Positions 32,937 through 36,876 of a DNA stretch of 64,000 nt are shown in pieces; position 1 is the first letter of the stretch, and each line of letters opens with the position of its first letter. Below the pieces are notes generated by a model. It was not told the origin of the DNA. It saw only the letters and a list, made by a program, of their open reading frames with translations, and searched no databases. The position numbers and the translations under genes were made by a program. The DNA comes from a virus: the IMG/VR virus record IMGVR_UViG_3300021466_000176; one strand, given 5' to 3'.

Positions 32937-33007
32937 CTTAACTTTTAGGAAAAGTTATCAAAAACCGCTTGCGGAGACGGATTTTGCACTACTTTTCCTA
33001 AAAGTAG

Positions 33008-33079
33008 GCCCAGGTGGTGTAGTGAGAATCATATCACCCTGTCACGGTGATGACGCGGGTTCAAATCCCGCCTTGGGCG
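33008..33079 (+). tRNA. tRNA-Asp(GTC)
   Basis: Full cloverleaf. Confidence 0.95.
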
Positions 33080-33151
33080 CTACGCACTCTATGAGTGCCT
33101 CTGGGCAACGGAAAGGCCCAACCAAAGAACCCAGATGGGGTCAAGCCACCA

Positions 33152-33224
33152 CGGAACGTATCGCAACGGCCGACGAACCCCGCTGTAGACGGGGAATATG
33201 CAGGTTCAAATCCTGTCGTTCCGA
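33152..33224 (+). tRNA. tRNA-Tyr(GTA)
   Basis: Cloverleaf, short variable loop (archaeal type). Confidence 0.9.
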
Positions 33225-33323
33225 CTCGGCCTTCATAGGGCCGATGTAGGGTTGAACGCAGGGACTATTGCCCCCAAAAGATCCGTAGTCATACAGGCAT
33301 CCGCTCCCTCAAGGAGCAGATGT

Positions 33324-33396
33324 GGCCCGATAACTTAACTGAGAAAGTACCCGACTGAAGATCGGGCGATCCCGGTTTGAATCCGGGTCGAGGCCA
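33324..33396 (+). tRNA. tRNA-Phe(GAA), bulged acceptor stem
   Basis: GGCCCGA/TCGAGGCC has one extra base; other arms intact. Confidence 0.8.
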
Positions 33397-33409
33397 TCCG
33401 GAATGGTAT

Positions 33410-33483
33410 AGTCCCTCGGTCTATTGGATATGGACATCTGGCCCTGAACCAGAAGATCGGAGGTTCGACTCCTTCCGGGACTA
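33410..33483 (+). tRNA. tRNA-Gln(CTG)
   Basis: Cloverleaf, one acceptor mismatch. Confidence 0.87.
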
Positions 33484-33649
33484 CTTGCCCCCTCGTGTGT
33501 GGGGCAATGCGGAACTCCGGAGTGATAGCGGTTGTCCGCGTACAGTGCGCCTCGAACACCATACCTCATTGTTGTCATGGTTCCGGTAACAGCTCGACGG
33601 TTTCAGTTCCGCCTCACTGCTATCACTCCGGATGGCGGTTCGAACGCGT

Positions 33650-33723
33650 ACTCCTGCGGTTCAGCGGACGTGGACGCCTGACTTTGAATCAGGAGATCGG
33701 AAGTTCGAATCTTCCCAGGAGTA
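33650..33723 (+). tRNA. tRNA-Gln(TTG)
   Basis: Full cloverleaf. Confidence 0.93.
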
Positions 33724-33847
33724 TCGGGGCAGCGATCGACACTTGACCCCAAAACCTGCGCGAGAATAGCTCAAGACATACAATGTTCACCGGAAAACGC
33801 GAGAACAGCTCTGTCGTCGATCGTTGTCCCACTGCGAAAAACAGAAC

Positions 33848-33918
33848 GCTCCATTGGTGTAGTGGAATCACATCGGGTCCTCATCCCGAAGAGCGGAGTT
33901 CAATTCTCCGATGGAGTA
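33848..33918 (+). tRNA. tRNA-Glu(CTC)
   Basis: Full cloverleaf. Confidence 0.92.
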
Positions 33919-33986
33919 CTCCGGGTTACCAATTCCCGGATGAAGTGGGGTTGAAGCTATGGGAACTACTGAGCCCAGCGCCGGGC

Positions 33987-34074
33987 GCTCGATTGGGGTA
34001 GTGGACATCACGACTTATGTCAATCCTACGGGGTTTTCATCTCCGTGACGCAGGTTCGAGTCCTGCATCGAGCA
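33987..34074 (+). tRNA. tRNA-Glu(TTC) with ~16-nt D-loop insertion
   Basis: Acceptor, anticodon and T arms intact; extra hairpin GACAT/ATGTC 34004-21. Confidence 0.75.
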
Positions 34075-34206
34075 TGGGTGACTCGGACTCGACCGGGAGC
34101 TTTGGGCGGCATCCGGGACGGCGTAGCACCGAGGTGACCACCGATACTACAACTTTAGAAAAGTTGTTGTCAAACCCGACAGGGGATGTCTCCTGTTGGG
34201 AGACGC

Positions 34207-34280
34207 GGGCCGCTATATCAATTAGGCAGATAGCTTCCTTTGCAAGGAAGAGGCTCCCAGTTCGATTCTGGGGCGGTCCA
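34207..34280 (+). tRNA. tRNA-Ala(TGC)
   Basis: Cloverleaf with G3:U70. Confidence 0.93.
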
Positions 34281-34355
34281 TCAACTTTTAGGAAAAGTTG
34301 AGTCAAAAACCGCACCGCGCGGAGCGGTCTTTTGCATCACTTTTCCAAAAAGTGA

Positions 34356-34426
34356 GCGGGAGTAGTGCAACGGAAACACGGGCGGCTGCCAGCCGTCAGA
34401 TACGGGTTCAATTCCTGTCTCCCGCA
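34356..34426 (+). tRNA. tRNA-Gly(GCC)
   Basis: Full cloverleaf. Confidence 0.92.
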
Positions 34427-34510
34427 CTCCGGGTTGCTCTTACCCGGACTCAAGTAGGGTGAGCCTCTGATACCGGATCGTCGTCCGTGCATAGCGGCGA
34501 TCCGGTTCGC

Positions 34511-34581
34511 GCGTGGATGCTCCAACGGTAAGACTTCAGCCTTCCAAGCTGAAAATGCGTGTTCGATCCACGCTCCGCGCA
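34511..34581 (+). tRNA. tRNA-Gly(TCC)
   Basis: Full cloverleaf. Confidence 0.9.
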
Positions 34582-34621
34582 TCAACTTTAGAAAAGTTGA
34601 GTCAAAACCGCGCTGCTGTGA

Positions 34622-34692: not shown

Positions 34693-34693
34693 T

Positions 34694-34765
34694 GCGCCTA
34701 TAGTGTAGTGGTCATCATTCGGCTCTGATATAGCCGGTACCTTGGTTCAAGTCCAAGTAGGCGCA
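34694..34765 (+). tRNA. tRNA-Ile(GAT)
   Basis: Full cloverleaf. Confidence 0.93.
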
Positions 34766-34874
34766 TCAACTTTTAGAAAAAGTTGAGTCAAAATTCCGCA
34801 CTGGCGGTTTTTGCACCACTTTTCCTAAAAGTGGCATCGGTAGTGTTAAGTTGCTACCTTTCAAACGCGGATGT

Positions 34875-34949
34875 AGCGAGGCGGGGCAGTCAGAAGTGCC
34901 CAATTGGTTCATATCCAATGGATCGGTGGTTTGAATCCACCTCTCGCTA
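34875..34949 (+). tRNA. tRNA(CAT): Met (A1:U72, initiator-like acceptor)
   Basis: Cloverleaf; lacks the GGG/CCC anticodon-stem triplet of true initiators, so subtype uncertain. Confidence 0.85.
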
Positions 34950-35051
34950 CTCAGGGTGATTCCCATCGTGCTCCCATCACTTGATCGCTGATGGGGGAAG
35001 ACAGCGCCCCTCATCCCCTGTTGGGCGCTCTACAAATTCAGGGGGTAACAC

Positions 35052-35127
35052 GGCGAGGTGGGATAGCTTGGCCTACTCCGGTGCCCTCATATGGCACAGA
35101 TCGCTGGTTCGAATCCAGTTCTCGCCA
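35052..35127 (+). tRNA. tRNA(CAT): elongator Met or Ile2
   Basis: Full cloverleaf, no intron. Confidence 0.9.
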
Positions 35128-35148
35128 CTTCCGGTCAACGGGGCCACT

Positions 35149-35310
35149 GCTCCCGATATCCTCGGGCATGGAGCCGGACAGGACGCGGGTACATTGCCCG
35201 CGTGGATAGTCCGTCTTGGCGGGCTCACTATCCGACAAAAAGGCGGGACCAAGAATCTCGCCAACAATATCTTTTTAGTCCGGTTCTCGGTTCGAATCCG
35301 AGCGGGGGTA
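35149..35310 (+). ncRNA. tRNA-like RNA with ~90-nt multi-hairpin insert in the anticodon arm
   Basis: Acceptor GCTCCCG/CGGGGGT, T-arm CTCGG-TTCGAAT-CCGAG, stem CCGGAC/GTCCGG enclosing three hairpins; identity unresolved. Confidence 0.55.
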
Positions 35311-35364
35311 CCGGCCCCTCAATCCCGGAAAGGAGTTCTCAACCCTCCTCAAAAAAGGAGACCT

Positions 35365-35435
35365 GGGATCATGGGGTAACGGTAACCTCCGGGCCTTGGG
35401 TGCCCGTGCTCCAGGTTCGATTCCTGGTGATCCCG
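35365..35435 (+). tRNA. tRNA-Pro(TGG)
   Basis: Full cloverleaf. Confidence 0.95.
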
Positions 35436-35486
35436 CTTGCGGCGCAGTTCGGCAGATACTTCCGGCTTAGATGCCTGAAACACAGC

Positions 35487-35888
35487 ATGGTAAGCTGGTC
35501 AACACTCACCTTCCGGACGGACGGTGAACTACGGCGTCTCCGGGACTCGCTTTGGTATCTCGATAACGACCCGAAACACACCGATACGGACGACCGCGAA
35601 AACGTCGTCTACGGCCAGTACTCCGGAACAACCTTCTTCGAAGACATGAGCTTCCTCAACCAGACGCTCCCCCTATGGGACGAAGCAGCGATCCTCCGGG
35701 CGTCGAACACCAGCGATCGAGGACAGGTGTGGTATATCTCGATCAATCCCTACTCGTTCAGCGTTGAGGATTTCTTCCATTTCGCTGAGGTGGAAGAAGA
35801 ACACGGACTCCCGAAAGGATCGATGGCAGCGAACAAAGCGGAGGAGTATTCCGGATTGCCGGTGAAAGTGGCAGTATCAACACCCTAA
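35487..35888 (+). CDS. Hypothetical protein inside tRNA array
   Basis: 133 aa from ATG 35487; longer track ORF runs through tRNAs and is rejected. Confidence 0.6.
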   Translation: MVSWSTLTFRTDGELRRLRDSLWYLDNDPKHTDTDDRENVVYGQYSGTTFFEDMSFLNQTLPLWDEAAILRASNTSDRGQVWYISINPYSFSVEDFFHFAEVEEEHGLPKGSMAANKAEEYSGLPVKVAVSTP

Positions 35889-35983
35889 CTACTTTTAGGA
35901 AAAGTAGTCCAAAAACCGCACGGCTAATTAAATATAATTAGCCCTGCGGTTGCGGGTTTGACACTAACTTTTCCAAAGTTAGT

Positions 35984-36058
35984 GGGCGCGTAGTATAATT
36001 GGATAATACGGCGGCCTTCGAAGCCGAAGACTTAGGAGTTCGAGTCTCCTCGCGCCCG
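35984..36058 (+). tRNA. tRNA-Arg(TCG)
   Basis: Full cloverleaf. Confidence 0.93.
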
Positions 36059-36071
36059 TTGCGGTACGGTA

Positions 36072-36146
36072 GGGTTCTTAGCTCAATTTGGGAGAGCGCC
36101 GGATTCCAGACCCGGAGGTTTGGGAGTTCAAGTCTCTCAGAGCCCA
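36072..36146 (+). tRNA. tRNA-Trp(CCA), intronless
   Basis: Cloverleaf, one anticodon-stem mismatch. Confidence 0.88.
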
Positions 36147-36211
36147 TCCAACTGTAGAAAAGTTGGTTCAAAAGCGGTGCGTTGAATACGATCAGGGCGT
36201 TTACTGATCGT

Positions 36212-36439
36212 ATGGAGCACACGTTCCAGGAACCGCGTACGATCGCCGTTCTTCACGAGGTGTTCGAGGACAAAGGTGACCTCGGAAAATGGAAACAGCG
36301 GACCAGCACGATCGATACACGGACGATCATGATCGAGGAGGATACTCTGATCTTCCTCGGCGACGGGGAGTCCGGACAGGCCGTCCTCGTTGTCAGTAAG
36401 GAGAACTTCATCTCCGCTCATACTGACGGCGTGCGCTGA
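36212..36439 (+). CDS. Small hypothetical protein
   Basis: 75 aa. Confidence 0.55.
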   Translation: MEHTFQEPRTIAVLHEVFEDKGDLGKWKQRTSTIDTRTIMIEEDTLIFLGDGESGQAVLVVSKENFISAHTDGVR

Positions 36440-36485
36440 CCCAAAAGGTAGTTAACTGCTTGGTTCCCAAGTAGATACCAAGTAC

Positions 36486-36836
36486 ATGGTAGAAGATATC
36501 GACCTCGACGCAAATTTCAGTGATGAAGGTGGCGAGGTATCCGGATCAACGACCGTTCACGGCGTAGTTACGGGCGGGGTTCCGGATTCGATGGATGCTG
36601 CGCTTCAGGTAGAAATCGGAGGGGCGACGACGAACGTTGATATCTACGTCGAGGGACGAACGAGCCCGGATATCGGCTATGAGAACGTCATTACATCAAC
36701 CAACGTCTCGAATGGGTACTCCGATCTCCAGACGGGGATTGATCTCTCCGGATTGTACGACGTGCGGCTCCGGGTGGTCAACCAGGACGGGACGAACGAT
36801 GGATCGGTACGCGCGGTGCTGTCGGTATCCGGATAA
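36486..36836 (+). CDS. Hypothetical beta-rich acidic protein
   Basis: 116 aa. Confidence 0.65.
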   Translation: MVEDIDLDANFSDEGGEVSGSTTVHGVVTGGVPDSMDAALQVEIGGATTNVDIYVEGRTSPDIGYENVITSTNVSNGYSDLQTGIDLSGLYDVRLRVVNQDGTNDGSVRAVLSVSG

Positions 36837-36876
36837 CTTTAGAAAAGTTATTGTCAAAGGCGCTCGTCGTGAGCGT

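Follow-up and report, generated by a model that had tools for sequence, protein, structure and literature searches.

Analysis of a 64,000-nt stretch of viral DNA (hereafter the window) revealed a repeated module, composed of a small hairpin and an A-rich tail, that is placed flush with the ends of tRNA genes and open reading frames (ORFs). The window is part of IMGVR_UViG_3300021466_000176, a single IMG/VR record of 134,075 bp that is estimated to be 91% complete and belongs to a virus of salt-loving archaea (a halovirus). The copies constitute a family resembling repetitive extragenic palindromes (REPs), and the family has no match in Rfam or in the searchable literature. We tentatively favor the reading that the module is an RNA-level boundary hairpin, which would punctuate a polycistronic tRNA/ORF transcript and cap the 3' ends of ORFs. 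This reading is preferred because different hairpins occupy one flush position and because the polarity of the module faces the gene boundary. Local multiplication of the copies, through duplication, gene conversion or template switching, is probable.

By eye and with a script, we counted 15 copies in the window, 11 forward and 4 inverted (-), with hairpin centers at 5319, 14569, 26887, 32948, 32998(-), 34158, 34291, 34346(-), 34591, 34776, 34825(-), 35898, 35973(-), 36157 and 36842. The hairpin has a stem of 8-11 bp, made up of two to four variable outer pairs and the inner stem ACTTT(T)/(A)AAAGT, and is closed by a loop of AGG, AGA or a near variant (AGR); the tail, (G/T)(T/G)CAAAA(A)CCGC, usually leads into a GC-rich helix. 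Matches to a loose core pattern numbered 17 (overlapping registers of 11 sites) as compared to 1.1 expected, and none of 100 shuffles reached 17. A regular expression applied to the whole 134-kb genome recovered 14 of the 15 copies, copy 5319 being too diverged for it; it gave no match outside window positions 14562-36848 and no further copy in the remaining ~100 kb. All copies are contained within 5312-36876 (32 kb), and 12 of them lie inside 3.9 kb. At the gathering score, Rfam had no match for the module in the window region or in the archaeal loci described below, returning only tRNA and signal recognition particle (SRP) RNA, and a literature search with the motif string returned a primer only.

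The tRNA genes number about 35 and are arranged in three blocks, with 31 called by ARAGORN and four added by Rfam (34875-34949, 37194-37265, 37494-37565 and 37575-37649). An earlier note, made from the sequence without database searches, had claimed that forward hairpins abut six tRNA 3' ends and four stop codons and that inverted halves end right before three tRNAs, and the measured positions bear this out. Relative to the tRNA 3' end (plus-strand coordinates throughout the window), the first paired base is at +1 for tRNA-His (paired unit 32938-33007, occupying the tRNA-His/tRNA-Asp spacer), 0 for tRNA-Ala (paired unit 34281-34355, occupying the tRNA-Ala/tRNA-Gly(GCC) spacer), 0 for tRNA-Gly(TCC) (solo forward copy 34582-34612), 0 for tRNA-Ile(GAT) if the Rfam tRNA end, 34765, is assumed (paired unit 34766-34835), +1 for tRNA-Trp (solo forward copy 36147-36186, with one G/A mismatch in the stem) and 0 for tRNA-Ser(GCT) (a forward variant at 26878-26908, GGCACTTTCGAAAAGTGCC and then TGTCAAATGACG). 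The offsets at stop codons range from -4 to +1. At 35888 the offset is +1, and the paired unit with the longest core (35889-35982) extends from this stop, of ORF 35487-35888, to tRNA-Arg(TCG). At 36836 it is -4, with the TAA of ORF 36486-36836 inside the 5' arm of a solo forward copy (36833-36876) that is followed by a GC hairpin and an ATG at 36877. At 14558 and 5312 the stem begins on the last base of TGA. The former copy (14558-14597), at the end of a UvrD-like helicase ORF (12438-14558), has an 11-bp stem and the tail GTCAAAAACAGCACCGC; the latter (5312-5341; ORF 4170-5312; tail GTGTAAAAACGCC) is weak, with 6 bp that include one G.U and a fold z of +0.87. Inverted copies end at 33007, 34355 and 35982, and tRNA-Asp, tRNA-Gly(GCC) and tRNA-Arg(TCG) begin at 33008, 34356 and 35983/4, respectively.

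In the central array, seven of eight forward copies are flush with a gene end, versus 3.6% per random non-genic position (P about 6e-10), and every solo copy is in gene orientation. Two copies are exceptions. The solo forward copy 34149-34206 (center 34158), whose module and following GC-rich hairpin reach the 5' end of tRNA-Ala, has no flush called gene upstream and is 74 nt from the nearest called gene end; in the unit that follows tRNA-Ile(GAT), the inverted copy 34825 stops 39 nt before the next Rfam tRNA. As a separate observation, ARAGORN places at 33987-34074 a tRNA with a four-base 'anticodon', which likely contains an intron; a structured stretch of ~65 nt follows it (34075-34147), stops 9 nt before forward copy 34158, and may correspond to another small RNA.

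Each inverted copy lies 50-75 nt downstream of a forward one, yielding four palindromic units of 70-94 nt with inverted halves of ~30 nt and differing cores, in agreement with the earlier note, which had described paired halves with variable cores. It had also claimed that the flanking bases vary in a compensatory manner, and the outer stems agree strongly with this: contiguous outer pairs total 45, whereas dealing the 3' arms out at random gives 17.4 +/- 4.5, and none of 20,000 such permutations reaches 45. Because a MAFFT alignment of the 15 copies misregistered the stems, pairs were counted by script. At least 10 different kinds of outer stem occur among the 15 copies, and three copies, those after tRNA-Ala, tRNA-Gly(TCC) and tRNA-Ile, are near-identical. 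Where a stop codon is inside the 5' arm, the 3' arm is complementary to that codon. The two halves of one unit carry unlike outer stems, indicating that the local hairpin is kept and not half-to-half pairing. The paired units fold strongly in isolation, with energies between -23 and -37 kcal/mol and z values between -3.9 and -6.8.

What recurs after the tRNAs is a hairpin, not a sequence. Thirteen of the 21 tRNAs whose 3' spacer is 30 nt or longer scored for a flush hairpin (at least 6 bp, starting within 3 nt of the tRNA end), against a rate of 7% for random positions; the true number is about 11, as two 'spacers' are tRNAs missed by ARAGORN. Five flush hairpins are unrelated in sequence to the family: one at 33084-33098, 3 nt past tRNA-Asp, and four that directly adjoin the 3' ends of tRNA-Tyr (33226-33244), tRNA-Gln(CTG) (33485-33507), tRNA-Glu (33920-33940) and tRNA-Gly(GCC) (34428-34448). 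The last two have TCCGGGT...CCCGGA in common (TCCGGGT...ACCCGGA in the second copy) and form a second small family. None of the five contains any T run. Separately, we observed that the tRNA-Gln spacers 33485-33648 (164 nt) and 33726-33847 (122 nt) are long inverted repeats that form extended hairpins (-45 and -41 kcal/mol).

How such hairpins might work can be sketched for the central tRNA/ORF array (32866-37128), which is probably polycistronic because its spacers are without A/T-rich, promoter-like stretches; by inspection, the spacers that lack the motif contain no A/T-rich hexamer fit for a TATA box. The small ORF at the end of this region (36877-37128) overlaps at its 3' end the first 10 nt of tRNA-Val(TAC) (37119-37192). 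Polycistronic transcription is an inference, as are cuts made by RNase Z and RNase P and any stabilizing or terminating effect. The island would be transcribed as one or a few polycistronic RNAs. Once a tRNA or small ORF has just been made, the next 17-21 nt would fold as a local hairpin, which the A-rich tail would join to a further, GC-rich helix; the paired units would add a mirror-image hairpin just upstream of the next tRNA. The spacer would thus be locked up and unable to pair with neighboring tRNAs, and the 0-2 unpaired nucleotides left between acceptor stem and spacer would allow defined cuts by host RNase Z and RNase P. At the ends of small-ORF messages the hairpin would cap the 3' end, with leaky termination also possible. 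This arrangement would resemble the tRNA punctuation and hairpin stand-ins of mitochondrial genomes, in which tRNAs mark the cuts in long transcripts and small hairpins stand exactly at gene junctions or right behind tRNA-like structures. In murid herpesvirus 68, tRNA-linked hairpins are released by tRNase Z. Both systems belong to other lineages and have other sequences; repetitive hairpin-forming elements have also been described in sponge mitochondrial genomes (PMC2800124).

Several points weigh against the boundary-hairpin reading. Its transcription units and cleavage sites are deduced, a hairpin right at a cleavage site could obstruct RNase Z or RNase P instead of helping, and the covarying outer stems could also be explained by template-switch 'correction' of DNA palindromes. 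Folded in isolation, the paired units reach their lowest energy as one long rod instead of as a pair of local hairpins. The G.U pairs in the giant-virus stems described below (27) are only modestly above A.C mismatches (16). In HGTV-1, another tRNA-rich halovirus, flush tRNA hairpins occur at the background rate (2 of 19), and the tRNA blocks at 26422-27177 and 37119-37846 of the present virus have their genes close together, separated by just 0-11 nt, and contain no hairpins. Taken together, these two observations indicate that hairpins are not needed for tRNA maturation in haloviruses. The motif is absent from HGTV-1. A distinct tRNA-flank repeat is present there: AAATCGAAAGATTTATATA, a small hairpin and then a TATA-like stretch, follows tRNA-Lys and tRNA-Gly(GCC) on the minus strand of NC_021328 (48780-48803 and 50450-50473).

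No close relative of the virus was found in a phage collection searched by DNA and protein, in IMG/VR protein scans with three window proteins, or with a halovirus-specific DNA pattern, which gave chance matches only; homologs of the TnpB-like protein are at most 46% identical. The module itself is present in cellular archaea. With each prokaryotic species represented by a single genome, a scan for copies with the halovirus-type tail gave 21 matches, 19 of them archaeal (Micrarchaeota and relatives, one Methanosarcinales metagenome-assembled genome (MAG) with six, a Methanosarcina and Thaumarchaeota) and two in AT-rich Flavobacteria. Exact copies were found in 35 of 401 sampled genomes from the phylum of the Methanosarcina MAG, which GTDB groups with the haloarchaea; a reversed control pattern gave one match. 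Except for the Methanosarcina MAG at the center of this query, all copy-bearing genomes are 1.1-2.7 Mb, smaller than typical haloarchaeal genomes, and a host source is therefore not evident. Methanosarcinales units form tandem arrays, in which single units are present, absent or duplicated between otherwise identical loci. On Methanosarcinales metagenome contigs, one 28-nt hairpin unit is present or absent, or a 58-nt unit is tandemly duplicated (L201 versus L169/L179; L190), showing that the repeat arrays change unit by unit.

Outside Methanosarcinales, roughly half of the archaeal loci have the module in or adjoining a tRNA gene. It is flush after a cellular tRNA-Ser that adjoins SRP RNA (L148) and after a cellular tRNA-Gly(TCC) (L230), where the flank is closer to the viral flank than the two tRNAs are to each other. 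Recent capture of a tRNA with its flank is unsupported, since identity between the viral tRNA-Gly(TCC) and its cellular counterpart is only ~70%, and that between the two tRNA-Ser is lower. In L210 (3740-3830), a 38-nt solo copy has as its flanks a direct duplication (18 nt) of the 5' portion of tRNA-Gly(TCC), and its hairpin center is 27 nt before the intact tRNA. In other loci, from Micrarchaeota-type MAGs and a Methanosarcina relative, tRNA introns are largely made of the module. In tRNA-Thr(CGU, UGU, GGU) introns of Micrarchaeota (L199:6387-6626(-); L209:1292-1463; L219:1131-1240(-), which is the same as L152:2745-2854), it begins the intron 0-1 nt past position 37, and it is likewise at the intron start in tRNA-Arg(CCU) of another lineage (L224:1456-1567(-); L238). 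L205:2690-2822 and L214:3515-3647(-) each have an inverted copy that stops at the 3' exon border, and the L209 intron has a diverged inverted copy at its end. Rfam alignments confirmed the intron placement in L219 and L224, where the copies also adjoin a plausible bulge-helix-bulge motif. Compared with archaeal bulge-helix-bulge introns, those of L219/L152, L224, L199 and L209 fit in having the hairpin directly past the 5' splice-site bulge, the module as intron body, and an A-rich tail that leads back to the anticodon-pairing stretch. The halovirus units differ in lying between tRNAs and having unpaired flanks; by-eye inspection of the folds of the four units revealed no such motif (two 3-nt bulges, 4-bp helix) at the unit ends, and splicing endonuclease and RtcB were not found in the virus. 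In all these archaeal cases, as in the virus, it is the hairpin that faces the exon or tRNA, with the tail directed away from it.

An IMG/VR scan with core plus CAAAA returned more than 109 AT-rich contigs. Those sampled carry genes for an intein-bearing family-B DNA polymerase, Rpb2, D5 primase and collagen repeats, and we therefore consider the contigs giant viruses. Their consensus is A-T-N-N-ACTTTT-AGR-AAAAGT-N'-N'-A-GCAAAA, with covarying outer pairs; the search pattern demanded core, loop and tail. Agreement in the covarying outer stem and in the flush placement is independent of that pattern. With simple longest-ORF calls used in these foreign loci, 60 of 143 motifs are within -15 to +10 nt of the upstream stop codon, distances to the downstream start are broad, and motif density is 0.50 per region between convergent genes versus 0.25-0.26 elsewhere. 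In a giant-virus-like tRNA array (L191), the module begins 0-5 nt past four tRNAs. Freshwater contigs L001-L109, many of them GVMAG, carry dozens of copies of the conserved hairpin (TNN-ACTTTT-AGR-AAAAGT-N'N'A-GCAAAA) 0-6 nt past stops, sometimes in 26-nt tandem arrays (for example L027:6327-6349, L079:1867-1889 and L105:1654-1676). The modest excess of G.U pairs over A.C mismatches in the giant-virus stems is weak and fits RNA- or DNA-level constraint.

The position of these copies is that of the 'hairpin rule' of Mimiviridae, in which a palindrome right past the stop codon marks the transcript end, the hairpins are described as not conserved in sequence, and a viral RNase III-like enzyme cuts before polyadenylation (PMC4402537). 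Four halovirus ORF ends and many in the giant-virus contigs likewise have a palindrome directly past the stop, with core, loop and tail in L001-L109 as in the halovirus copies. The halovirus differs in that RNase III was not found and most of its hairpins, of limited length, follow tRNAs. The similarity across taxa may reflect convergence instead of common descent. We consider it improbable, though worth stating, that a single sequence-conserved RNA boundary element extends across several archaeal phyla, an archaeal virus and eukaryotic giant viruses, whether read by a conserved archaeo-eukaryotic RNA-processing or 3'-end factor or persisting as a tiny mobile element that survives because splicing endonuclease, RNase Z and RNase P of the host excise it from RNA.

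Among alternatives to a boundary hairpin, the strongest, which we regard as possible and clearly less probable, is a purely selfish, non-autonomous repeat with no viral role (similar to REPINs, SMRs or MITEs, the miniature inverted-repeat transposable elements), spread by a host enzyme or by replication template switching. Its abutment on genes might then arise because copies last only where they are harmless, just outside a gene or in an intron, and deletion bias trims the slack. The inverted terminal halves and variable cores of the four units, the near-identical trio after tRNA-Ala, tRNA-Gly(TCC) and tRNA-Ile, the gain, loss and tandem duplication of units between otherwise identical Methanosarcinales loci, the solo copy flanked by the L210 duplication, and several tRNA introns that contain little beyond the module are all consistent with spread, and G.U is not clearly favored over A.C. 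Haloarchaea also carry mobile repeats of ~110 bp with inverted ends and without target duplication or known enzyme (PMC3119063). The earlier note had proposed looking for TnpA/RAYT elsewhere on the replicon; the Y1/RAYT family (PF01797) had no match at E<=1 in the whole record. Neither did the whole record contain tyrosine recombinase (PF00589), including IntI, serine recombinase, DDE_3 or DDE_Tnp_1 transposases (other DDE families were not searched), or RtcB, splicing endonuclease and RNase III. The lone TnpB/Cas12f-like gene (29974-31218) has no motif copy at its ends, and inspection of the flanks of the four paired units revealed no common direct repeat that would indicate target-site duplication. 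The MITE trait of terminal inverted repeats is present in four units, and the partner DDE_3 or DDE_Tnp_1 transposase is not. Also against selfish spread, all 15 copies are clustered in 32 kb and the other 100 kb is free of them, the unrelated hairpins at the same flush position are left unexplained by the insertion preference of one element, and the archaeal copies (35 of 401 genomes, mostly small) do not reveal a host source.

The REP and REPIN elements of bacteria, which have RAYT transposases, have been assigned functions in stabilizing mRNA 3' ends and in termination. Like them, the halovirus module is a short, extragenic, imperfect palindrome just past genes (15 copies), single or in inverted doublets (4) that can form a long rod, with copy-specific complementary stems. 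Unlike them, it has no RAYT/Y1 gene and no conserved 5' GTAG-type head, and its polarity comes from the 3' A-rich tail; its copies are not dispersed in large numbers over the replicon, occupying one 32-kb stretch where most abut tRNA genes; and it is a module of archaea and giant viruses that bacteria almost entirely lack. The transposase-free SMR and PATE repeats of Haloquadratum (PMC3119063) resemble it in being ~50-110 bp, non-coding, haloarchaeal in setting and inverted or palindromic at their ends, and SMRs likewise lack target duplication or a known enzyme. They differ in being dispersed genome-wide and tending to enter other mobile elements, not tRNA or ORF ends, and the supplementary tables of that study contain no match to the module sequence. 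The subterminal palindromes of IS200/IS605-derived PATE are direct and related to TnpA/TnpB ends, whereas the halovirus halves are inverted and the ends of the TnpB-like gene are free of the motif. The earlier note had left a choice between an RNA signal and a small mobile repeat, and both still stand: the unrelated flush hairpins speak for the signal and some spread is apparent, whereas a classical REP/RAYT or MITE is disfavored by the missing enzyme and target duplication. A classical mobile element in the virus is not supported, and local multiplication is evident.

A transcription terminator or insulator is less probable still, and unlikely overall. Here the T run of the 5' arm and the hairpin would stop RNA polymerase after each gene, the palindrome together with the A-rich tail, which reads as a T run on the opposite strand, would stop antisense transcription, and each gene would have its own promoter. 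The copies do lie at 3' ends in gene orientation, the giant-virus motif is tied to the upstream stop, not the downstream start, and is densest between convergent genes, and the sites after stand-alone cellular tRNA-Ser and tRNA-Gly genes are where a terminator would be expected. In Haloferax volcanii, a hairpin alone gives 59% termination and T5C gives 95% (PMC7237163), and the Methanosarcinales tandem units fit the reported 'multiple consecutive terminators'. However, T runs in the 15 copies are just 3-5 long (3 T in 5 copies, 4 T in 8 and 5 T in 2), so that only two reach the archaeal intrinsic-terminator criterion of at least five T on the sense strand, and the five same-position hairpins have no T run. 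Short T runs aside, efficient termination after each tRNA would silence the array, because the motif-less spacers have no TATA-like hexamer; with ~11 hairpins in series and most spacers lacking a promoter-like A/T stretch, distal tRNAs would go unexpressed. Inverted copies directly before tRNAs, sense copies inside archaeal tRNA-Thr and tRNA-Arg introns, and the presence of the motif at just four ORF ends in the 134-kb genome also argue against this function. The module is therefore unlikely to be an efficient terminator in the virus; termination may be its role in giant viruses and after stand-alone cellular tRNA genes.

Very unlikely, in our estimate, is a site acting at the level of DNA, either a palindromic protein-binding site or a recombination hot spot or cassette junction, somewhat like attC, through which tRNA genes would be acquired, lost and shuffled. 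The gene-site-gene layout in one orientation with promoterless spacers would suit such a site, as would imperfect palindromes with conserved ends and variable cores that start at or on the stop codon, and wobble pairs and A.C mismatches in about equal number fit constraint on both strands. No tyrosine or serine recombinase, however, is found in the genome, and a dimeric protein that reads sequence would not require outer stems that vary and yet stay complementary. In integron attC sites, the R''/R' core sites (RYYYAAC...GTTRRRY) pair across the site, whereas the halovirus AAC...GTT pairs lie inside each half. A promoter, with the hairpin as a TATA-like box and the tail as a proximal element, was rejected, as the module is tied to the upstream gene end, the downstream start is 23-59+ nt away in the virus and at broad distances in giant viruses, and inverted copies leave a start site no room. 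A CRISPR repeat was likewise rejected, regular spacers being absent and the sequence unrelated to the neighboring array.

In bacteria, small hairpin repeats are a familiar feature of gene ends, and their purpose is still debated. The unrelated flush hairpins, the absence of the tested mobility families, and the presence of the module in giant viruses and cellular archaea are the new points here. One module keeps its hairpin against the functional RNA whether it stands at a tRNA 3' end, a tRNA 5' end, a stop codon or either border of a tRNA intron, and these four settings span an archaeal virus, cellular archaea of at least three phyla and giant viruses. If the mobile-element version of a shared module were true, insertion in an anticodon loop would give rise to a new tRNA intron and insertion between genes to a punctuation mark. 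If the shared polarity across these settings holds, the module would offer a handle on tRNA-array maturation in large viruses, on the origin of short archaeal tRNA introns, and on whether a sequence-specific, archaeal-type counterpart of the giant-virus hairpin rule exists.

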